In this document: piece by piece, positions 30,132-40,529 of the stretch | How the letters are laid out: each line of letters begins with the position of its first letter | Numbering within the stretch: position 1 is the stretch's first letter | The notes under the pieces: model-generated | The model's input: the letters and a program-made list of their open reading frames with translations, nothing else | Databases searched by the model: none | What the model was told of the DNA's origin: nothing | NCBI GenBank assembly: GCA_963716725.1 | Contig: CAVQUB010000002.1 | Coordinates: 1-64,000 of the forward strand | DNA from: an uncultured delta proteobacterium | Lineage (GTDB): Bacteria > Myxococcota_A > Polyangia > Polyangiales > Polyangiaceae | DNA length: 64,000 nucleotides | Direction: 5' to 3' | Position numbers and translations under genes: made by a program

Positions 30132-30241
30132 GGGATCTGATGCCCCATAGCGGACTGGCCGAATTCTGGACAAAGACCTTGCGATCCCGGCCGGGGCCCG
30201 GACCCGGGGCCCGGCCTCGATTCGGCTATAGTGGCCGGGCG

Positions 30242-31747
30242 ATGGCCGCTTGTGCGCGCTGCGGAGCGCTGCCCGACCCGGGCGCGACGAGTTGCCCGTC
30301 CTGCGGAGCAGCCCACCTCACGCTGCCTCTGGGCAGCGAGGGCGAATCCCCCGTTCGAAGCGGCACGCTGGTGCTCGGCAGCGGCGTGTCCATCACCGAT
30401 CCGCTGCCGAAGTCGCAGCGGATCCGCCCCGCCGCCCCGCGTCCTCGGGAGCCCGAAGCTCACCCCCACCAGGCTCGGGTCCCCCGCGACCATCCGCTGG
30501 CCGAGCGCCGGGCCGTCCCCCGGGTCGAGGTCCTCGACGCGCCACCGGCGCCGAAGCCACGCCGGATCTCCACCCGGACAGCCGCCCTCGGGGCCCTGGC
30601 CCTCGCCTGCCTGCTCGCGGCGGGCGCGGCCCTGATGCTCATCTCTCGCGCGCCCTCGCTCCGGGCGGAGACCCGCTTCGACGCGACCGGTGCTCCGATG
30701 CTCCACGTGACGTGCCCGGACTGCGTCGATGGCACCATCCTCGCCCTCGGTGAGCAGACGCTCACACTCACGCGGGGGCCGGGGGCGTTCCGGATGGAGC
30801 CGCCCCTCGTGCTAGGCGTCCGTCCCACGCAAATCGAAATCCGCGCGCCGGGAAAGCGACCCAAGCTCGAAACCGTGAACGTCGTCGTGGACTTCATCGT
30901 GAGCGCCGATCGGCGTGGGCTCACCCATCCCGATCCGAAGCTCGCGGTCGTGTTCGACGCGAAGAGCGACGTCTCCATCATCGTGGACGGACGGGTGCTC
31001 GATCCGGGCGCGAGCGGCGTCCGCCGTTACGACCTGCCGCTACGAAACGATGTCGTTGGGCCGGCGAAGAGCGCAGTCACTCTGTCGAAGCAGATCCCCT
31101 ATCTGGTGAAGCGCGCCGGCGGTGACAGCCTACGGGGCGAGATCCAACTCACCGTCGACGTGGTCCCGCTCTGGGTGGAGGTTCCTGGCGAGAGCATCGT
31201 GATCGAAACCTCGAGCTTCATGCTCGCGGGCAGCACGGAGCGAAACGGGATGGTGACGGTGGAGGGTCGCCCGATCACCGTGGATCCTTCCGGCCGATTC
31301 GCCCAGCTGATGAGTGTGTCCGCGATCGGCGACACATCCATCAAGGTTCGTGCGTCAGCGCCCGGTCGCGCCCCGCGCTCCCAGCCGATCCGCGTCCGGC
31401 GCGTCGCCAGCCTGGCCACGGAAGCCGCCGCCTTCGAGCGATCCGCCCAGCGTTCCTTCGACGCCATCGCCGACGACGTCGATCGCAAGCTCGGCTGGGC
31501 GGTGGTGCTCGAAGGCAAGGTGGCGGGTCTGGAGTCCGACGGCTACCTGACGTTGCTGACTCTGGACGTCACCCAGGGCTGTGCCAAGCCGCCCTGCCTC
31601 GCGCAACTCCGACTCGGCGAGCGCCGCGGTCTGTCCCCCGGTCAATCGCTGATTGCCTACGGATTTCTCGTCGGAAAGCGCCACGACGCGGCCAGCGGGC
31701 GCGACCTGCCGCAAGTCCGAGTAGAGTTCCTGCGAGGCCGAGAGTGA
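30242..31747 (+). CDS. Zinc-ribbon / TM / extracytoplasmic Ig-like and OB-fold-like protein
   Basis: CARCG..CPSCG, Pro-rich linker, TM helix, beta-rich C-terminus; stop overlaps the kinase start. Confidence 0.65.
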
Positions 31748-33900
31748 GCGAGATCCAGGCGAAGAACGAGGACCCGGGCGCCATCTCCGGGCCGGAGCTC
31801 TGTCGCGCCTGCGGGCACGAAAACGTCCTCGCTTCCCGCTACTGCTCCGGGTGTGGCGTGCGACTCGGCTTGGGCGCCATCGACGAGTTCGATGGGCCGT
31901 CGTCCAAGCGCGCGACCGGCTTGGGCGCCTCGACTGAGGTGCGCGCGGCGTCCGACCACGAGGCTCCCATTGCTGACCCGCTGATCGGCACCACCGTAGC
32001 CGGGCGGTATCGCATCAGCGAGCCCCTCGGGCGCGGCGGCATGGGCGTCGTCTACCGCGTGGAGCACGCGCGCATCGGCAAGCTGATGGCGCTCAAGCTG
32101 CTCACAGGTGAGCTCGGTCGCGACCCCGAAATCGTCGCACGGTTCAAGCGCGAAGCGCTGATGGTGAGCAAGCTCAGCCATCCGAACACGGTTCAGGTCT
32201 TCGACTTCGGCGTCGCCGATGGGCTCACGTACCTGGCCATGGAGTACCTGCGCGGCAACGACCTCGGTCACATCGTCCGGCGCGACGGACCCGTCGACCC
32301 CGAACGCTGCGCCAAGATCATGATTCAGGTCTGCAGCTCGTTGGCCGAAGCTCACGGCCTCGGGATCGTGCACCGGGATCTGAAGCCCGAGAACATCTTC
32401 ATTCTGAGCGGCCACTCCGAGAGCGACGTGGTCAAGGTGCTCGATTTCGGGTTGGCCAAGCTCCGCGAGTCTCCCGAGCTCGGCGAGGTGACGTCGCGAG
32501 GCGCCATCGTCGGCACGCCCTATTACATGTCTCCGGAGCAAATCCGGGGTGAGGCAGCCGATCCGCGCAGCGACATCTACTCGCTCGGCTCGCTGATGTA
32601 CGCCGTGCTCACCGGCGTGCCGGTGTTCGACGCGCCCCGACCGATGGGTGTGTTGACGAAACACCTGACCGACCTGCCGGTTTCGCCAAAGTCGCGCTTC
32701 CCCGAGCTCGGCATCCCGATCGGGATCAGCGGGGTCGTCATGCGCGCCCTCGAGAAGGATCCGTCCAAGCGTTTTCAGAGCGTGCACGAGCTGCAGTTCG
32801 CGCTGATCTCCGAGCTGCGGACCGGCGGCGCCACGAGCAGCGTGGAGATCTTGCTCGACTCGGGCCAGATGCACGCGCTCACTCGCAGCGCCGACGACGC
32901 GGTCACCCGCGGCGAGGTCGAGCGATACGAACGAAAGCTGCGACGACGCGGCCTGTACACCTGGGTGTCGCTGCTCGGCATCTTGGGCGCCACCGCCGCC
33001 GCTGGATGGCTGGTGATGGCGCGCACGGGAGCCAGCGACGGCTTCGATGGCAGCGAACGCGAACCCAACAACGCGGCGAGCGAAGCCAACGATCTGCCCT
33101 TCGGCGAGGCAGTGCGCGGCCAGATCGGGCGGCGCATGGATCCCGAGCGCAGCGATCGGGATTTTTACCGCGTAACCATCCCAACGGGCACCACCCACGT
33201 CAGAATCGAGACCACGAGCCTGCCGAACTTGCCGCTCTGCACCTACGTGTACCGAGTTGGCTTCGAGTCGCCCATCGGCCGCTACTGCTCCGGCGCCGCC
33301 GGCCGACCCCTGAAGGTCTCGGCCCTCGAGATCGAAGCCGGGGAACACCTGCTGGCCGTAATGCAAGATCGCGACTCGTACCAAATCGCCGGCGCCCAGC
33401 TGCCCGTACTCGAAAACGTGTCGGACAACTACCAGCTCTCGGTCGGAAACTCGGAGCTCGCGCCGGGGATGGAAACCGAGCCGAACGACACCGCGAAAGA
33501 CGGCGCACGCCTCGCGCTCGGCGCCGAGTTGCGGGGCCGGCTCGATTGGGTACGCGACGTGGACTACGTGTGCGCCGAGCCGGGCGACGGGAAAGTCCGG
33601 TTCGCCGTCGAGGACTCCCCCACTCTCCCGCGCCTCCGCCAGGCTGTGCTGCAAGTCACTCCCGTCGGCGGCCCCGCGAACGGGATCCCGATGCGCCTGC
33701 ATAGCCGCAACGCCAAGCTGCCCGCCGACGCCAAGAACGACGTCGCGGGTGCCTGGACGAGCGAGCCGGCACCGCGCGGGCTCGCCGAGGTGTGCATCAA
33801 GATCGAGCTCGTGCCAAACCCCTACGCCCCACTGCCCCAACCGGTGATCGCCCCGTCGGGCGACGAGGAGTACACGGTCCGTGTCGAACTCAGCCCGTAG
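31744..33900 (+). CDS. Transmembrane Ser/Thr protein kinase with N-terminal zinc ribbon and extracellular PPC-like domains
   Basis: LGRGGMGVVY, ALK, HRDLKPEN, DFGLAK, GTPYYMSPEQ; TM; E.EPN motifs. Confidence 0.92.
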   Translation: MSEIQAKNEDPGAISGPELCRACGHENVLASRYCSGCGVRLGLGAIDEFDGPSSKRATGLGASTEVRAASDHEAPIADPLIGTTVAGRYRISEPLGRGGMGVVYRVEHARIGKLMALKLLTGELGRDPEIVARFKREALMVSKLSHPNTVQVFDFGVADGLTYLAMEYLRGNDLGHIVRRDGPVDPERCAKIMIQVCSSLAEAHGLGIVHRDLKPENIFILSGHSESDVVKVLDFGLAKLRESPELGEVTSRGAIVGTPYYMSPEQIRGEAADPRSDIYSLGSLMYAVLTGVPVFDAPRPMGVLTKHLTDLPVSPKSRFPELGIPIGISGVVMRALEKDPSKRFQSVHELQFALISELRTGGATSSVEILLDSGQMHALTRSADDAVTRGEVERYERKLRRRGLYTWVSLLGILGATAAAGWLVMARTGASDGFDGSEREPNNAASEANDLPFGEAVRGQIGRRMDPERSDRDFYRVTIPTGTTHVRIETTSLPNLPLCTYVYRVGFESPIGRYCSGAAGRPLKVSALEIEAGEHLLAVMQDRDSYQIAGAQLPVLENVSDNYQLSVGNSELAPGMETEPNDTAKDGARLALGAELRGRLDWVRDVDYVCAEPGDGKVRFAVEDSPTLPRLRQAVLQVTPVGGPANGIPMRLHSRNAKLPADAKNDVAGAWTSEPAPRGLAEVCIKIELVPNPYAPLPQPVIAPSGDEEYTVRVELSP

Positions 33901-33901
33901 C

Positions 33902-35077
33902 GTGCGTCTCGCGCTGATCGCCGGGGCGGTGCTCTCGATGGGGCCCGGCGCGCGGGCGGAGCGCATCGACCCCACTTTCCCCCTGAGGCGGGCCGTCGGC
34001 GCACCTGGCGGCGCGCAGCCCATGTTTCGGGTCGACGCCGCCAGGACGGGTCGGGCCCGAGCACCCCTGCCGACGGCCCCCCGAGTGATCTGGCGCGCTC
34101 GCGTCACCGGCGGCCTGGATCTTCCGGTCGTGGTCGATGCGCGCGGGCACGTCGTCGCCGCCAGTCCGATGTCACAGCTCGTGGAGCTCGATCTGAACGG
34201 AAAGCTCTCCTGGTCGCTGAAGACGGGCAGCTCCGCTCCCGTGCAGGGCCCGGTGATCACGACCAACGGCACGCGTTTGATCGTCACCGGCGGCGCCGAG
34301 CTGTGGGGCGTCGCAGCGAACGGGACGCTGCGCGTCCGGCGGTCGCTGCCCGTTCCCAGCGTTCGTGGCGCTGTTCCGCCGCTGGCCACCCGTGATGGCG
34401 GCGTGGTGCTCTCGGTGGTCGGCTCGCTGCTCGCGCTCGACGCAAGCGGGGACGTCCAGGCTCGCGCCACGCAAACCGATCCCGTCGTGACCTTGCTCGA
34501 GCAGGGCGGGCGCACGCTGATCGTCACCGAGCGCGGTGACGTGTTGGAATGGAAGCCCCCTCGCGAGCCGACGAAGCTCGGAAGCTTCGGCGGACGCGTC
34601 GACGAAGGAGCCGCGCTTTCGAGCGCCAACCACCTCACCGCCGTGGTGGACAACGAGCGACTGGTGGACTTCAAGCTCTCGACCAAGACTCGTCACGTTC
34701 GCGCAGTCTCTACCGATCGCTTGCAGGGACCGCCGGCGATCTTGGCCAACGGCGAAAGCCGCATCGCGTCGTTTTCGGGGTTGATGCTGGGTCACGATCG
34801 CACCGGCCTCGAGACCGCCCGGGCGGAGCTCGAACCGAGCAGCGGCACCACTGCGAGCGTTCCGGGCATGTTCCAACCGCCGCCCCTGGTCGTCGATGAA
34901 AAGGGCCGTGTGGCCTTCGTGCGACCAGGCCTCGACGCGGGCGTCGTGCTCGAGTCTGGGGAGCAAAAGACAGCCGCCGGCGCGGCCTGCGGTGACCCGC
35001 TCTCGCTGGCTCCGGCAGGACCAGGGCGTTTCGTGGTCGCTTGCCGCTCGGGACTGATCTTGATGATCGGTCAGTGA
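33902..35077 (+). CDS. Secreted PQQ-like beta-propeller protein
   Basis: Signal peptide; MFRVDAARTG; repeated LD..G...W units. Confidence 0.65.
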   Translation: MRLALIAGAVLSMGPGARAERIDPTFPLRRAVGAPGGAQPMFRVDAARTGRARAPLPTAPRVIWRARVTGGLDLPVVVDARGHVVAASPMSQLVELDLNGKLSWSLKTGSSAPVQGPVITTNGTRLIVTGGAELWGVAANGTLRVRRSLPVPSVRGAVPPLATRDGGVVLSVVGSLLALDASGDVQARATQTDPVVTLLEQGGRTLIVTERGDVLEWKPPREPTKLGSFGGRVDEGAALSSANHLTAVVDNERLVDFKLSTKTRHVRAVSTDRLQGPPAILANGESRIASFSGLMLGHDRTGLETARAELEPSSGTTASVPGMFQPPPLVVDEKGRVAFVRPGLDAGVVLESGEQKTAAGAACGDPLSLAPAGPGRFVVACRSGLILMIGQ

Positions 35078-35926
35078 TACAGCGCGCTAAACAGGATCGA
35101 CAAGCCGTAGGCGCGAGCGCTCTGTCGGACTGTCTGGTTGTCGACGTCGAGATCGCGATTGCCCCGCGCGGCGACCAGGCGCAGGTAGCCTCCGAGGGAC
35201 CAGTTCGGCGAGACCCAGGCGTCGTACCCGGCGAAGAGCGCCAGCCCGGCCCCCTCGTAGGGTTTCTCGTCGAAGCCGGTCCCGTCGTCGTCCGGCTTCA
35301 CGGCGAGGGATGACAGACCGATGACTCCACCGACGTGCAGCCCGCCGGCGGCGTCGAAGTAGCCGTCCACGAAGGGCCCGACCACGACCGCAGAGGCTTG
35401 TCCCGACAGATCGGAGGACTTGCCGCCGGACTCGACGCGAGGATCGCTAGCGCTGAGTCGAGAAGATCCCTCCACCGATCACCAAACCGTCGATGGGCGT
35501 CCCGCCCAGGAGCAGATCGAGGCTCCCGCCGCCACCTTTGACATCGGCCTCCGGCGCGGAGTCCGTGCGCATGCCAAGCCAGCCGCCGCCGAGCGCGACG
35601 CGCAGGTAGAAGCCGTCGTGCAAGTGCGCGCCCGGCTCGTCCGCTTCCTGCGGCGGCGCGGGCGCGACCACGTAGACTCCGCCCGTCGGCGGAGGTGGAT
35701 ACGCATACGCCGGTGCGACGTAGCCGCCCGGCGGCGCGACGTAGCCGCCCGGTGGAGCCGACGGATACGCGGGTGGCAGCGCGGTCCCGGACGGCGCGGC
35801 GGTGGCAGGCTGCGGCGCTGGCGCTGGCGCGACCGGCGCGGGCACGTCCGGTGGGGGCGGCTGCGCTCCGGCCTTTGTCGAAGACATGAGCCACGCGAGC
35901 GCCAGCCAGCCACGAGCGTTCCGCAT
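35071..35926 (-). CDS. Small outer-membrane beta-barrel protein with Pro/Tyr-rich N-terminus; frameshift near 35455
   Basis: Signal peptide, APPGGYV repeats, HDGFYLR motif, alternating strands, C-terminal LFSALYH. Confidence 0.65.
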
Positions 35927-36021
35927 CGACCAACGAGAGCCCGCATCGAGCCGCGCCGTCAAGACCGACCGGCGCTTCGCCCCGCCGGCACCTGACAGAG
36001 CTCGGTGGTATGGTCCCGGGC

Positions 36022-37134
36022 ATGTCTTCGGCTGCCGCCGCTCGCCCCAAACTCTACAGCGTCGCCATCGAGACGACGGCGTACTGCAATCAGAAGTGCG
36101 ACTATTGCTACAACGAGTGGCGCGCAGACGGCGGTTCGTCCCTCGACAAGGGCGATCGGGACAAGCTCTTCTTGCGCGTGCAGAAGCTGCTCGATGCCTT
36201 CGAACTCGACCACGTCACGGTGAGCGGCGGTGAGCCGTTTTCGCACCCGCGCATCTTCGAGCTCTTCGATCTGCTGCGAGAACACGGCGTTTCGGTCCAG
36301 ATCATCTCGAACGGCGGCATGATCACTCCGGCGCTGGCCGAACGACTCGCCCCCTACCGCATCCGATACGTGCAGATCACGCTGAACGGTCCCGACGAAG
36401 CGCTGCACGCCGCGCACGTGGGAGCCGGGCATTTCGAGCGCACCCTGGCTGGGATCCGCGCCCTGGGCGCCGCGGGAGTTCCCGTGGTCGGGTGCACCGT
36501 GGTCACCAAGAAGAACGCCTCCCGCGTGGGGGAGATCCTCGAACTCTTCTCGTCGCTCGGCGTGCGACAGGTCTCCCTCAGCCGATTCAGTCCGGCGGGC
36601 TACGCCGCCCGCTACGCCGGTCAGCTGCTGCCGTCGCGCAGCGACTTCTTGCTCGCCTTCGGGCAGGCGCTTCCCTGGGCCAAAGACCGCGGCATGTCCC
36701 TCTACTGCACCATGCCCATCCCGCCCTGTTCAGTCGACGTGGCCGAGTTCGCTCCCATCCACTTCGGAAGCTGCTCCATCGGCACGTCGATGCAAGAGAT
36801 CGCCCTCGGCCCCGATGGCCGACTCAAGAACTGCACACTGCACAAGACCGCCCTCGGGGGCGTCACCGATATTTTGGACGAGGGCGTCGACGTCGCGAGT
36901 CTGATCGCGTCCCCCGAGCTCACCGAGTACAAACGCGAGACACCGGAGTTCTGCCACGGCTGCCTGCACGAGCACACCTGCGCCGGCGGTTGTGGTGCTG
37001 CCGCCGAGTGGGTCATGGGTCACGCCCGGAAGTTTGCCGATCCCTTCGTGATGCAGCACGTCGACGACGATCTGGCCTCGCGCCTCGAAGCCCAGCGGCG
37101 TGACGGCAAGACCCACCTCGAAGTCATCCTCTGA
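36022..37134 (+). CDS. Radical SAM protein with SPASM domain
   Basis: CNQKCDYC; SGGEP; C-terminal CSIG..IALGPDG.LKNC and CHGC.....CAGGC. Confidence 0.92.
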   Translation: MSSAAAARPKLYSVAIETTAYCNQKCDYCYNEWRADGGSSLDKGDRDKLFLRVQKLLDAFELDHVTVSGGEPFSHPRIFELFDLLREHGVSVQIISNGGMITPALAERLAPYRIRYVQITLNGPDEALHAAHVGAGHFERTLAGIRALGAAGVPVVGCTVVTKKNASRVGEILELFSSLGVRQVSLSRFSPAGYAARYAGQLLPSRSDFLLAFGQALPWAKDRGMSLYCTMPIPPCSVDVAEFAPIHFGSCSIGTSMQEIALGPDGRLKNCTLHKTALGGVTDILDEGVDVASLIASPELTEYKRETPEFCHGCLHEHTCAGGCGAAAEWVMGHARKFADPFVMQHVDDDLASRLEAQRRDGKTHLEVIL

Positions 37135-37138
37135 GCCC

Positions 37139-39307
37139 ATGGCACGGCCCGATCGCCCGCGCGTGCTCTTGCTCTGGCCCGGGGGTTTGTTCGCCGGGGG
37201 TGCCAATTTCGGCGTGCCTCAGCTGCTGATGCTCGCCGCCGCCATTCGGCAGAAGACCGACGCCGAGATCGACGTGGTCGATCTCGACATGGAACGCGCT
37301 TTCGGGCCGGTCGATCTGTCCCGAATCGTGGCCGGCGGATACGACCTCGTCGGCGTCTCCTGCTACTCCTCGTACGACTACCTCAAGGTGATGGCCATCG
37401 CCGCTCGCCTGCGCGAGCTGTTGCCCAAGGCGTGGCTGGTCACGGGCGGCTATCATCCCTCGGCGCGCCCCGACGAGCTCTCCTTCGACGGTTCGCCCTT
37501 CGACTTCGTCGTGGTGGGGGACGGCGAGCGTCCCCTCGCTCGCCTGGTCGAGGCCCTCGCCGCGGGCAAGCGTCCGCTGAACCGGGTGCTGGGCCCGGAG
37601 CCCGTCCCCGAACCCAAGGAGCTCGCGCCCTACGACTGGTCGTTGCTCGAGCGCTACCGCCCCATCGCCCGGCGCATGGCATCGCAGGCCGAAATCTACC
37701 TCTCGCGCGGCTGCCCCTACGACTGCTCGTTCTGCATGGAGAGGGCCAAGCGCGACGTGAGCTGGCGCGCTCTGGAGCCGCTGCAGGCGGTCGAAGAGCT
37801 GCACCGTCTCGATCGCTTCCTCGACCTGTCCCGCTGGACGCTGTTCGTGGCCGACGCGCTGTTCGGAATGAAGCGCGGCTGGCGGCGCGAGTTCTTGAGC
37901 GAGCTCGTGAGGCGCCCGATCCGCGCGCGCAAGACCTGGCTCTTGATCCGCCTGGACTTGATCGAGCAGGAGGACGTCGAGCTGATGGCGCGGGCCAACG
38001 TCGGGCCAGGCTTCGGCCTCGAGTCCGGCGATCTCGGGCAGCTGCGTCGCATCCGCAAGGCGGGCAAGCTCGAGGGCTACCTCGACAAAGTGCTCACGGT
38101 GGCGGAGTGGGCGCGACGCTACGAGGTCGCCTTCGGCGCCAACATCATCGTCGGGCACCCAGGTGAGACCGAAGCCAGCCTGCGAAACAGCGCCCGCTTC
38201 ATGAAGAAGCTCTTCGTCGACCACCCGCGGGGCACTCATGGCTTCCTGTCAGTGGACCCCTTTCGCCTCTATCCCGGCTCCCCCATCGACGAAGAACGCC
38301 CGCGATGGGAACGCGAGACCGGGATGAAGGTGCACCGCTACCCCTGGTGGAACGACGGCGATCAGGACTTCTTGGCCGAGTGGATCGACCCGAGCGCAGA
38401 ACTCGATTTTCGCACCACGGAGCGGCTGCGCATCGAGCTCTTCTCCCCGATCCTCGAGGCGATCCCCCAGCGCTTCGCCTACACCGGCCCGGCGCGGGAC
38501 TACTACATGCGGGCCGTCCGCGAGCAGGTCGATCTGCTCGCGCCTCGACGCCAACTGCGCACGCTGGGTCTGTATCACCTCTGGCGCGGTCTCTCGGGCG
38601 AAGTCGCACCCGGCGCGCGAGCTGGCGAGCTCGCGGCTGACACTGAGCTTGCCGACTTCGCACTGCGCGCCCGGACCTCGACCGTAGAAAAGAAGGGCAT
38701 CGCCGGCGACGACGCCGTGACCCGCGCCTTGCACAGCGTTCCACGCGAGCGCTTCGTGCCCATGGAGAGCATCGGCGAGTCGGCCGATGACCGCGCGCTG
38801 TCGCTGACTGAAGACGGAGGTTCGACGATCTCGGCGCTGCACGCCTACGCCATCGCCTTTCGGGCGCTCGGCCTGGGCCCGGGTGACGACTTCGTCGATC
38901 TCGGCGGCGGTACGGGCTACGGCGCGGCGCTCGCTTCTGAGATCGTCGGCGAGAGCGGCAGCGTGCTCAGCATCGAGTTCGACCCCGATCTCGCGGCGGC
39001 GGCAGTCGCCAACCTGGCGCGCTACCCGCAGGCCCGGGTCCTTGCCGCCAATGCCCACGACGTGGCCGCTTGGGGCGATGCTCAGCGGGTCTACGCGGGG
39101 TTTGCCGTCGAGCAGATGCCCCAGGCTTGGCTCGACGCGCTGCCCGACGGCGCGGTGCTCGTGGCGCCAGTCGGCGCGCCATCGGACCAGACGCTGATGC
39201 GCTACGAACGCACGGCTCAGGGCGTGATCCAGCAAGCGCTCGGAGCCGTCCGCTACGTGCCCGACCGCTCGCGCCTCGACGATCAGGCGGCAGCCATCAG
39301 CGAATAG
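37139..39307 (+). CDS. B12-binding radical SAM enzyme fused to a C-terminal protein-L-isoaspartate O-methyltransferase (PIMT)-like domain
   Basis: Cobalamin-binding domain (DLVGVSC..VTGGYHPS, VVGDGE); SRGCPYDCSFC; GLESG; IVGHPGET; then VPRERFVP..STIS..DLGGGTGYGAALAS..LVAPVG..VRYVP. Confidence 0.88.
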   Translation: MARPDRPRVLLLWPGGLFAGGANFGVPQLLMLAAAIRQKTDAEIDVVDLDMERAFGPVDLSRIVAGGYDLVGVSCYSSYDYLKVMAIAARLRELLPKAWLVTGGYHPSARPDELSFDGSPFDFVVVGDGERPLARLVEALAAGKRPLNRVLGPEPVPEPKELAPYDWSLLERYRPIARRMASQAEIYLSRGCPYDCSFCMERAKRDVSWRALEPLQAVEELHRLDRFLDLSRWTLFVADALFGMKRGWRREFLSELVRRPIRARKTWLLIRLDLIEQEDVELMARANVGPGFGLESGDLGQLRRIRKAGKLEGYLDKVLTVAEWARRYEVAFGANIIVGHPGETEASLRNSARFMKKLFVDHPRGTHGFLSVDPFRLYPGSPIDEERPRWERETGMKVHRYPWWNDGDQDFLAEWIDPSAELDFRTTERLRIELFSPILEAIPQRFAYTGPARDYYMRAVREQVDLLAPRRQLRTLGLYHLWRGLSGEVAPGARAGELAADTELADFALRARTSTVEKKGIAGDDAVTRALHSVPRERFVPMESIGESADDRALSLTEDGGSTISALHAYAIAFRALGLGPGDDFVDLGGGTGYGAALASEIVGESGSVLSIEFDPDLAAAAVANLARYPQARVLAANAHDVAAWGDAQRVYAGFAVEQMPQAWLDALPDGAVLVAPVGAPSDQTLMRYERTAQGVIQQALGAVRYVPDRSRLDDQAAAISE

Positions 39308-40113
39308 ACCAGGCTCCGCTCGTCGTTGCTCAGCGCACTGACGCTCGCGTCCGGAGCGTTGGGTCCGAAGTGCGCCAACCAGCGCAGGTGCTCCAGCCGA
39401 GCGCCGCCGCGCTCCGCTCGGGTCGCGAGCAAGACCACCGCCATCTGCTCCACGCGACGCTCGGCCGCTCGAGCGGCCAGCCCAACTTCACGAACCGTGG
39501 CCTCGTGGGCGGCCTGCCAGGCGACGTGCTGCACACCGGGTCCTCGCTCCAGGTCGGGAGCGCCGATCCAGATCGAAGATCCCCGTACTCGCCCCCGCAG
39601 CCGCAGCGGTCGCAACACCGCCACGGTGCACCGGCCGAGCTCGGGCGCGACGGCGACCAGCTGCGTGAGCGCCGCTTCCAGCGGCGCCCAGTCGAGCGCC
39701 GCGGCGGGCAGGCGGTCGAAGAAGGGCGCCTCGAGCTCGGCAGCGACCCGCAGCAACTCGGCCGCTCGCTCCGAATGCGTCAAGGGCTCGAGCAACTCGG
39801 GTGCATCGACGTCCTCCGCGCGGAGCTCCGAAAGGTCGCGGGTCGCGCAGGCGCGGGCCCGGGCGTGGTCCCGAAACAGCCACGCGACGAGCTGTGCCCG
39901 CGCGAGGTCCTCGTGGCCCGGCGCGAGAACGCCGAGTGCTTCAGCGTCCTCCGCCAGCGTCCGCTCGGAGGCGTCGCCGAGGGTGCGCCTCGAGTGCTCG
40001 ATCCAGTCTGGGTCGTAGACCGAGGCTGGCGCGGCGGCGGAGCGCCGTACGTGGGCGAGCACGTGGAACACCAATTCTGCGTACCTGGGCGGCGTGCGCA
40101 GCAGCAGCGGCAT
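39283..40113 (-). CDS. Hypothetical protein with degenerate zincin-like HEATV motif
   Basis: GC3-rich ORF; FHVLAH near the N-terminus, QAAHEATV..RRVEQ near the C-terminus; 3' ends overlap the rSAM-PIMT gene by 25 bp. Confidence 0.65.
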   Translation of the reverse strand: MPLLLRTPPRYAELVFHVLAHVRRSAAAPASVYDPDWIEHSRRTLGDASERTLAEDAEALGVLAPGHEDLARAQLVAWLFRDHARARACATRDLSELRAEDVDAPELLEPLTHSERAAELLRVAAELEAPFFDRLPAAALDWAPLEAALTQLVAVAPELGRCTVAVLRPLRLRGRVRGSSIWIGAPDLERGPGVQHVAWQAAHEATVREVGLAARAAERRVEQMAVVLLATRAERGGARLEHLRWLAHFGPNAPDASVSALSNDERSLVYSLMAAA

Positions 40114-40205: not shown

Positions 40206-40529
40206 ATGATTTCGATCACCAACCTAGCAGCGGAAAAAGTGAAGGAAATTGCAGGCACCGAGGGCCTCGACGGACAGGGGCTCCGGCTCCGGGTCATCGG
40301 CGGCGGGTGCGCTGGGTTCCAGTACGACCTCTATTTCGAGGACAAGCCCACCGATATGGACGAGCGATTCGAGTCCAACGGAGTGCTGCTGTTCATCGAT
40401 CCGCTGAGCTACCAGTACCTCGACGGTACCGAAATCGACTACGTCGACGGCGTCCACGGCGCGGGCTTCAAGTTCGGAAACCCGAACGTGACGGGCTCTT
40501 GCGGCTGCGGCTCGTCGTTCAACGTCTGA
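40206..40529 (+). CDS. erpA: A-type Fe-S cluster carrier (ErpA/IscA/HesB family)
   Basis: GGGCAGFQY and NPN...SCGCGSSF. Confidence 0.9.
   Translation: MISITNLAAEKVKEIAGTEGLDGQGLRLRVIGGGCAGFQYDLYFEDKPTDMDERFESNGVLLFIDPLSYQYLDGTEIDYVDGVHGAGFKFGNPNVTGSCGCGSSFNV

Follow-up and report, generated by a model that had tools for sequence, protein, structure and literature searches.

A SPASM enzyme, a B12-radical SAM::PIMT fusion and a third conserved protein as a candidate maturation machinery for Cys-Leu-repeat precursors in Myxococcota

Background

The described systems closest to the locus analyzed here are the SPASM-type thioether maturases of the radical S-adenosylmethionine (SAM) superfamily (SkfB, PapB, CrpC); the class B radical SAM methyltransferases (PoyC-type enzymes, the Gln C-methyltransferase of methyl-coenzyme M reductase (MCR), and TokK); the O-methyltransferases of FxLD/lanthipeptide, lasso and graspetide pathways that resemble protein L-isoaspartate O-methyltransferase (PIMT) and act in making ribosomally synthesized peptides with post-translational modifications (RiPPs), along with the housekeeping PIMT itself; and the alpha-ketoglutarate (alpha-KG) HExxH enzymes represented by ChlB. 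The locus is part of a 64,000-nucleotide (nt) stretch of DNA from an uncultured member of the Polyangiaceae (phylum Myxococcota; positions 1 to 64,000 of contig CAVQUB010000002.1, about 68% G+C), hereafter the window, and comprises a gene for a SPASM-type radical SAM enzyme, a gene that fuses a B12-binding domain to a radical SAM core and a PIMT-like domain, and a convergent gene for a third protein. The window genes 36022-40113 are judged, at somewhat better than an even chance, to encode a three-protein maturation machinery for small precursors that are encoded at 11 other places in the genome; this judgement covers the general statement that the machinery acts on the precursors, each single chemical step being less certain. 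A ribosomal precursor and leader-guided tailoring by radical SAM enzymes are already known, and the novelty lies in the architecture of the enzymes, in the recognition protein and in the family of substrates.

In the PapB/freyrasin ranthipeptide precursors, an Asp or Glu is located a few residues from Cys. PIMT homologs of RiPP pathways have a role in aspartimide formation, and the D-[A/S/G]-G context is prone to succinimide formation. One report (PMC13692751) describes CrpC as installing ranthionine crosslinks on a protein-sized substrate, the Cys-rich protein CrpA, and another (PMC12636437) describes two activities of alpha-KG HExxH enzymes, the hydroxylation of Asp, His, Gln or Asn and the cleavage of RiPP backbones.

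The window SPASM gene shares with the thioether maturases a CX3CX2C core and a Cys-rich SPASM C-terminus, its product has SkfB and PqqE among the nearest solved chains (along with cytosylglucuronate decarboxylase and the ChlB radical SAM domain), and the proposed substrates, like the ranthipeptide precursors, contain repeated Cys motifs with Asp or Glu often a few residues away. It differs from these maturases in that it has neither an NCBIfam equivalog score nor a RiPP recognition element (RRE)/PqqD-like domain, is obligatorily paired with the fusion protein and a zincin-like partner, and has a lipoprotein-like substrate. The fusion protein combines a B12-binding domain with a radical SAM core in the same manner as class B enzymes, with weak matches to TIGR04014 (MCR Gln C-methyltransferase), TIGR03975 (RiPP C-methyltransferase), ApyD, TokK and the PDB entry 9ccb, those to NCBIfam models being far below the cutoffs; unlike these enzymes, it adds a conserved linker of about 150 amino acids (aa) and a C-terminal PIMT-like domain. 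The latter resembles RiPP-associated and housekeeping PIMTs in its motifs and its match to the Pfam PCMT model but scores under all NCBIfam cutoffs and is fused to a radical SAM enzyme instead of being a stand-alone protein of about 210 aa. The likeness to alpha-KG HExxH enzymes, which is weak (scores below), is found in the third protein, whose best Foldseek match is a ChlB structure; homologs of this protein in a sister clade, encoded in fusion with the radical SAM gene or behind it, have an HExxH motif where the window protein has HEATV. No NCBIfam model listed and no solved chain covers the full length of the fusion protein, and no paper on a B12-radical SAM::PCMT fusion or on the precursors was found in a literature search that had subscription journals and bioRxiv supplements outside its coverage; the author of a preliminary description of this DNA likewise knew of no characterized enzyme with this fusion.

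The radical SAM gene pair

The features of the locus are as follows (Pfam aa numbering on the fusion protein starts at GTG 37100):

36022..37134, plus strand: SPASM-type radical SAM enzyme, 370 aa; open reading frame (ORF) open from 36010, likely start ATG 36022
37139..39307, plus strand: fusion protein with cobalamin-binding domain, radical SAM core and PIMT-like methyltransferase domain, 722 aa
37223..37546 (aa 42-149), plus strand: B12-binding domain PF02310, E-value 4.1e-12, 46.4 bits against a cutoff of 32.1
37697..38200 (aa 200-367), plus strand: radical SAM core PF04055, 45.4 bits against a cutoff of 29.5
38684..39268 (aa 529-723), plus strand: PIMT-like (PCMT) domain PF01135, 112.3 bits against a cutoff of 20.3
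39283..40113, minus strand: third component, 276 aa, convergent with the fusion gene and overlapping its 3' end by 25 nt

The CX3CX2C cluster of the SPASM gene is CNQKCDYC (36085-36108, aa 26-33), within a radical SAM domain (PF04055, E-value 2.5e-24, 86.7 bits against a cutoff of 29.5) that, according to Pfam, begins at residue 20; no RRE/PqqD-like N-terminal domain was found in the protein. The auxiliary-cluster Cys motif of SPASM proteins is CX9-15GX4C ... CX2CX5CX3C, and the C-terminus of the window protein contains C255-X14-G-X4-C275 and C315-X2-C-X5-C-X3-C328, with the segment CHGCLHEHTCAGGC at 36952-36993 fitting the SPASM pattern; the Pfam SPASM model itself has no match at E<=0.01. 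The best NCBIfam matches (version of June 2026) are ScmE, ScmF, the mycofactocin maturase (MftC), WgkB and PqqE, with NirJ and AhbD also among the best, and no cutoff is reached among the 25 families listed, StsB, DynA and AmcB included (best 83.9 bits against 400).

The stop codon of the SPASM gene (TGA, 37132-37134) is followed, after 4 nt (GCCC), by the ATG of the fusion gene at 37139, from which a single open frame extends to 39307. The motif CPYDCSFC is located at 37712-37735 in the radical SAM core, where the cluster Cys and many other residues are invariant in nine diverse homologs. The PIMT-like domain contains VPRERFVP (38738), STIS (38822), DLGGGTGYGAA (38897), VAPVG (39161) and VRYVP (39248), and aligns to the solved PIMTs 2yxe, 4o29 and 1dl5 with VPRExF, TISA.H, GxGxGY and PVG in register. 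The preliminary description had reported the 4-bp spacing, the CxxxCxxC and SPASM Cys cluster of the first gene, one uninterrupted three-domain frame in the second, and each of these fusion-protein motifs; it is accurate on all these points.

The fusion is real and not an assembly artifact because PF02310, PF04055 and PF01135 occur together in all of the 120 fusion relatives listed (61-100% identity, 646-866 aa), none of the 39 fusion-gene matches in 301 sampled genomes of the phylum has an internal stop, and contigs of two unrelated studies (X5 record 21, 37781-38937; X6 record 28, 38374-38846) bridge the junction at 38500-38750, for which a check had been suggested, without a gap. No indel across the stretch is listed in four runs, some of which have no contig cover over parts of it. 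No RNA run is listed for this DNA, which says nothing about its transcription.

The best NCBIfam matches of the B12-radical SAM part are diverse class B enzymes, including the ladderane-lipid type, HpnR, BchE, PhpK and ApyD, none at an equivalog cutoff (best 73.7 bits against 360), and 9ccb and TokK are the nearest PDB matches. For the PIMT-like domain, the scores are below the cutoffs of TIGR00080 (99.7 against 159.05) and PRK13942 (107.4 against 282), and matches are also found to the FxLD-system methyltransferase (E-value 1.7e-21; 76.8 bits against 320) and the ATP-grasp maturase-system methyltransferase (8.6e-15). Two stand-alone PCMT-like genes are present elsewhere in the genome (contigs C15, 518729-519373, and C18, 90919-91470; E-value about 1e-13 to the C-terminal domain of the fusion) and, judging by sequence similarity, are candidates for the housekeeping repair enzyme; the presence of these separate genes suggests that the fused copy is not that enzyme.

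Relatives of the fusion gene were detected at 353 places in species-representative genomes. The best 80 of these were analyzed with 3-kb flanks, and all come from metagenome-assembled genomes with the labels Polyangiaceae, Polyangia, Labilithrix, Nannocystaceae or Enhygromyxa. In all 20 loci of a set spread over the phylum (about 9 kb taken on each side), the SPASM gene is located immediately 5' of the fusion gene, and the same holds for 72 of the best 80, that is, for 72 of the 74 with enough upstream DNA: six of the eight loci without it have less than 1.3 kb of upstream DNA, and two (L098 and L103) truly lack it. These counts bear out the co-conservation of the two genes, which the preliminary description had proposed as a check.

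A FastTree phylogeny of the 86 fusion proteins with a complete tail splits into a clade that includes the window protein (73 proteins; hereafter the window clade) and a sister clade (13 proteins, 35-41% identical to that of the window), each with 100% local support. Counted on the alignment of these 86 proteins, PIMT-like domains of the window clade retain the two motifs in 71 (GxGxG) and 70 ([SA]T[IVL]S) of 73 cases, and all 13 sister-clade domains lack both. A strict regular expression undercounts the motifs (GxGxG 60, TIS 35); the repeated losses that its counts suggested on the tree are superseded by the alignment-based count. The PIMT-like domain is fused in all 86 proteins and in all of the 120 relatives listed.

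A third conserved protein

The preliminary description missed both the third conserved protein (39283-40113, minus strand) and the identifiable family of Cys-Leu-repeat substrates. Minus-strand coding 3' of the fusion gene is supported by the G+C content at codon positions (GC3), and the start is the same as that of the protein on record. The third protein is kept in close relatives of the window and in a locus of another family. It is encoded no more than 3 kb from the fusion gene in 46 of the best 80 loci and is joined to the fusion protein in three of them. The loci L083, L085 and L094 form a subclade of the window clade with a long branch, in which the third protein is C-terminal on the fusion (about 1000 aa, four domains) and the TIS motif is lost.

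In the sister clade, the fusion ORF continues into a domain of about 250 aa, or a separate ORF with that domain follows. The domain is marked by the motifs 'AHVLAHLDLG.DAAS..DP' and 'LHEExHPxTD' (HExxH) and is homologous to the third protein of the window (hhalign probability 88%, E-value 2.8e-6). A reading in which some loci of the sister clade encode the PCMT domain on its own is ruled out, the separate ORF being the HExxH domain. In the window protein, H203-E204-A-T-V207 replaces HExxH, so that the second His is missing, and V occupies this position in at least 90% of the 29 aligned homologs.

The AlphaFold2 model of the third protein (predicted local distance difference test (pLDDT) score 96.5) is mainly helical. 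The top Foldseek match is the HExxH domain of ChlB (8s5f, E-value 0.12, TM-score 0.30), and VIA-align Z-scores against YbeY, selecase, thermolysin and 8s5f are 4.0-5.3 (4.4 for 8s5f), which is within the chance range for helical models; the weak structural neighbors are enriched in zincin-like proteins. No family is found above noise for the third protein in Pfam or NCBIfam, four homologs have no NCBIfam match, its matches in the ESM Atlas are 'hypothetical protein' clusters only, and the 120 relatives listed are without a Pfam domain and, where named, 'hypothetical'. The protein is a conserved part of the cassette whose HExxH motif is degenerate, and its fold may be zincin-like.

The precursor family

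No ORF with PCL- or GPCL-type repeats is present in the six frames of the window, in agreement with the preliminary description, which saw no adjacent precursor and supposed that the substrate may be encoded elsewhere or be a folded protein. Window-type precursors with 4-5 'PCLS' repeats lie in a gap of 400-500 bp between the SPASM and fusion genes of two loci (L029 and L030); in a third locus (L031), a precursor ORF is located behind the third gene, on the same strand. Among the best 80 loci, 55 contain a precursor at most 3 kb from the fusion gene, usually in the interval that separates the two radical SAM genes and with up to five in tandem; in eight, a precursor adjoins the third gene. A search with the N-terminus, then with a profile, identifies 11 precursor genes on 9 contigs of the window's genome, none of them near the cassette (a 90-aa member is encoded on contig C13), and genomes of the genus contain 9-11 paralogs each. 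The 11 dispersed genes have no recurring neighbor, the upstream genes being unrelated (FG-GAP/CARDB, pyrophosphatase, HEAT, response regulator). Candidates picked from the genome by regular expression (a 'LPPDVAARL' C-terminus; Cys-containing repeated 4-mers) were dropped, as they consisted of off-frame repeats and one weak lipoprotein. Of the two earlier suppositions, the one of a substrate encoded elsewhere agrees with these unlinked genes, which have adjacent counterparts in most relatives, and the one of a folded protein is not supported, the substrates being low-complexity chains rich in Pro and Asp.

Window-type precursors consist of 80-190 aa and include a conserved N-terminus, ILARRARFVAAALA (consensus M-x-D-D-x-[KR]-x-I-L-A-R-R-A-R-F-V-A-A-A-L-A), an invariant lipobox-like Cys, and 2-6 'P-Q-P-C-L-S' repeats separated by Pro/Asp-rich spacers. 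In an alignment of 40 precursors, I9, L10, R12, R13 and C31 (the first Cys) are invariant, and the hydrophobic segment closes with [A/G/S]-C, the Cys being present in 40 of 40, as read from the alignment without a signal-peptide predictor. The logo of 266 Cys contexts reads D-A-G-P-Q-P-C-L-S-P-P-P-P-D, with P at position -3 in 64%, P, A or V at -1 in 87%, and L at +1 in 74%, the remainder being mostly lipobox-like Cys-Gly; the spacers are rich in D-[A/S/G]-G.

Sister-type precursors (120-270 aa) have a signal-peptide-like N-terminus and 3-12 [VI]GPCL[SD] repeats with acidic or Pro-rich spacers. All 14 sister-clade loci, and none of 7 window-clade loci, have such a gene as the direct upstream neighbor of the SPASM gene; the sister-type profile matches five of five sister-clade genomes, and no GPCL-repeat protein of this type was found in the window, in its whole genome or in five window-clade genomes. 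Over the repeats, the profiles of both precursor types can be aligned (hhalign probability 96%, E-value 3.9e-9). By eye, the C-terminal '..ILxRL.....LPxDVAARL' of the sister-clade precursors (L034-L047) resembles the N-terminal 'ILARR' of the window type, and this sequence resemblance suggests that the recognition segment may have moved between the ends of the precursor across the two clades.

Neither precursor type is matched by a Pfam or NCBIfam model. Out of 1.84 billion cluster representatives, the precursor profile retrieves 1280 at E<=0.001 and 253 at E<=1e-10; of 13 cluster members listed, four have a name, in each case 'hypothetical protein'. In one paralog of the window's genome (contig C9, 19351-20241), the precursor N-terminus and CLS repeats are fused to a domain of about 170 aa of an envelope-type protein. 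The divergent gene upstream of the cassette in the window (35071-35962, minus strand) encodes a Pro-rich protein with a signal peptide and a 'HDGFYLR...GYDAW' C-terminal domain that is the same as the one on the C9 paralog (blastp E-value 5e-11). This gene is one ORF of 263 aa in L029 and is in two frames in the window, split near 35465-35469, which points to a frameshift or an assembly error.

The cassette is present in 39 of the 301 sampled genomes. Window-type precursors were found in 14 genomes, all 14 with the cassette, and sister-type precursors in 24, of which 22 have the cassette, the two exceptions being 86% and 88% complete. Altogether, 36 of the 39 genomes with the cassette contain a precursor, compared to 2 of the 262 without it; because the genomes are related to each other, this co-occurrence should be read as a pattern rather than as a statistical test.

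Predicted recognition of the precursor N-terminus

Co-folding the third protein (29 sequences aligned) with a precursor of 90 aa from the same genome (40 aligned) gives a score of 0.80, compared to 0.01 for the best of three controls; the runs share at least 42% of their contacts, and the partner has a pLDDT of at least 47. This mark is reached by 116 of 157 solved complexes and by 2 of 215 mismatched pairs, a calibration that is rough only, as alignments of our own making were used. The interface in the model is formed by precursor residues 1-27 and third-protein helices 52-63, 87-91 and 116-127, and the invariant R12 and R13 of the precursor touch the nearly invariant D56 and E119. The predicted leader-binding helical surface lies away from the HEATV motif. 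We know of no solved complex of a leader with a protein of this kind, and memory of a known structure is therefore unlikely to account for the co-fold. Thus, the third protein is predicted to bind the conserved N-terminus of the precursor.

Proposed mechanism and alternatives

A leader-guided modification system is the most economical reading of these observations, and the view of the preliminary description that the gene pair belongs to a peptide- or protein-modification system is supported. In the cytoplasm, the third protein would grip the conserved N-terminal segment of the precursor, serving as a leader-recognition subunit in place of a PqqD-like RRE. The SPASM enzyme would act on the invariant Cys of each repeat, the likeliest product being a thioether link (of the ranthionine or sactionine type) to a neighboring residue; the B12-radical SAM domain might alkylate an unactivated carbon at or beside the Cys-Leu pair; and the PIMT-like domain could O-methylate an Asp or isoaspartate (isoAsp) carboxyl in the D-[A/S/G]-G spacers, yielding a methyl ester or an aspartimide. 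The same N-terminal segment would then function as a (Tat-like) lipoprotein signal peptide, such that the modified chain, once exported, remains intact on the envelope. What the analysis shows is the anatomy and conservation of the genes, the joint occurrence and proximity of enzyme and precursor genes, and a co-fold of leader and third protein with controls; the single steps, their order and export are inferred, and the reaction types are taken by analogy with the enzyme families; the earlier idea of three peptide-modifying chemistries acting on one substrate may hold in this form. Methylation by the B12-radical SAM domain is not certain because enzymes of this class can also form C-S bonds, as reported for ThnL.

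Several observations weigh against this reading. Three of the 39 cassette genomes have no precursor and two genomes have a precursor and no cassette; in the window itself, no precursor adjoins the cassette, and the link to the 11 dispersed genes is drawn from relatives, from co-occurrence among non-independent kin and from structure prediction. Beyond the leader, the precursor is modeled at low confidence in the co-fold (pLDDT 47-49). As neither radical SAM enzyme reaches an NCBIfam equivalog cutoff, the reaction types are drawn from analogy to enzyme families. The spacer Asp is frequent but has no fixed distance from Cys (D 14-20% at +6 to +10), some precursors are rich in Glu and Pro with few Asp, and the sister clade keeps the spacers although the PIMT motifs are lost, which weakens the case for an essential Asp methylation. 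Finally, the RR-A-R-F spacing of the precursors is one residue longer than in the classical Tat motif, and export is a prediction.

In a classical multi-core RiPP pathway, the same enzymes would act on the same precursors, the repeats would be excised as short peptides (natural products or signals), and the N-terminus would be a leader only. Multi-copy cores, tandem precursor genes and 9-11 paralogs per genome are all typical of RiPPs, and the intact HExxH domain of the sister clade could cut the chain, in line with the backbone cleavage by alpha-KG HExxH enzymes that PMC12636437 describes. Nevertheless, intact lipoproteins are favored over excised peptides because the window clade has HEATV instead of an intact HExxH, no peptidase or transporter family recurs beside the cassette among the flank ORFs examined (one locus has an aminopeptidase-like ORF upstream), and the C9 paralog, with its envelope-type domain, fits a protein that stays whole; the lipoprotein-like Cys that closes the hydrophobic segment in 40 of 40 precursors also speaks against excision, which makes the multi-core pathway unlikely. 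No lanthipeptide, lasso or ATP-grasp enzyme was found near the cassette.

The role of the PIMT-like domain and the nature of the substrate can also be read differently. The preliminary description had offered, as an option, that this domain is an isoAsp-recognition module; in the corresponding scenario for the window clade, it would be no methyltransferase and would hold the substrate by the Asp/isoAsp spacers for the B12-radical SAM domain. The invariable fusion of the domain is compatible with such a role, and in the sister clade a non-catalytic role is indicated because the domain is retained there without GxGxG and TIS (0 of 13), so that this part of the idea stands. It fits the window clade less well, given the near-complete retention of both motifs (71 and 70 of 73) and the alignment of VPRExF, PVG and other motifs with solved active PIMTs, since such purifying selection on SAM-binding residues is unexpected for a holding module; for the window clade, we regard it as improbable, more so than peptide excision. 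Least probable of all, and by our estimate very improbable, is an action of the cassette on a non-peptide molecule (a lipid, tetrapyrrole or cofactor), with the Cys-Leu-repeat proteins being co-inherited envelope proteins or carriers. The ladderane-lipid, HpnR and BchE matches of the B12 part and the NirJ and AhbD matches of the SPASM part point in this direction, and shared descent can yield co-occurrence in related genomes; these matches, however, are 4-10 fold under their cutoffs, the precursor genes near the fusion gene are mostly inserted between the two radical SAM genes, and the enzyme-linked third protein is predicted, with clean controls, to bind the precursor N-terminus. Moreover, to our knowledge, every characterized PIMT-like domain acts on protein carboxyl groups.

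Other genes in the neighborhood

Divergent from the third gene and at a distance of 92 bp, the plus-strand gene 40206-40529 encodes an A-type Fe-S carrier of 107 aa that belongs to the IscA/SufA family and scores 117.4 bits with ErpA, for which the cutoff is 117; the carrier is kept there in the three closest loci only, and it might supply clusters to both radical SAM enzymes. The other neighbors in the window (kinase, sigma factor, response regulators) are common to three close relatives only. Upstream, a 535-aa protein with an N-terminal zinc ribbon (30140-31747, plus strand) has a faint match to TIGR04338, a HEXXH metallohydrolase (E-value 0.0029, far below the cutoff), and its gene overlaps by 4 nt that of a Ser/Thr protein kinase (31744-33900, plus strand), the pair being common to L029 only. 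In L028, from the same genus, an insertion of about 6.6 kb relative to the window separates a 398-aa gene from the SPASM gene and contains a minus-strand ORF of 661 aa with a signal peptide.

Implications

A broader reading, which is possible but which we hold only tentatively and with less confidence than the general statement on the machinery, is that of a protein-level pathway across Myxococcota in which a lipoprotein signal peptide doubles as a RiPP-style leader and is read by a zincin-derived protein instead of an RRE. Through the SPASM enzyme and the B12-radical SAM::PIMT fusion, every Pro-Cys-Leu-Ser repeat would become, along with its Asp spacer, a new residue that is either cross-linked or alkylated, and the product, carried on intact envelope lipoproteins, might be a metal-binding or structural surface layer. 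In the same scenario, the two lineages would have reciprocally swapped the third chemistry, with an active PIMT and a dead HExxH domain in one and a dead PIMT and an active HExxH domain in the other.

If true, this would be a large unannotated enzyme-substrate system, with 353 places of the fusion and 1280 cluster representatives of the precursors. It would offer what is probably a new fold for leader recognition, along with a short substrate (about 90 aa) on which a PIMT domain and a class B radical SAM enzyme meet, and the reciprocal decay of the PIMT and HExxH motifs in the two clades would be a natural experiment on interchangeable tailoring steps. For the biology of myxobacteria, the system would point to chemically modified lipoproteins of the envelope.

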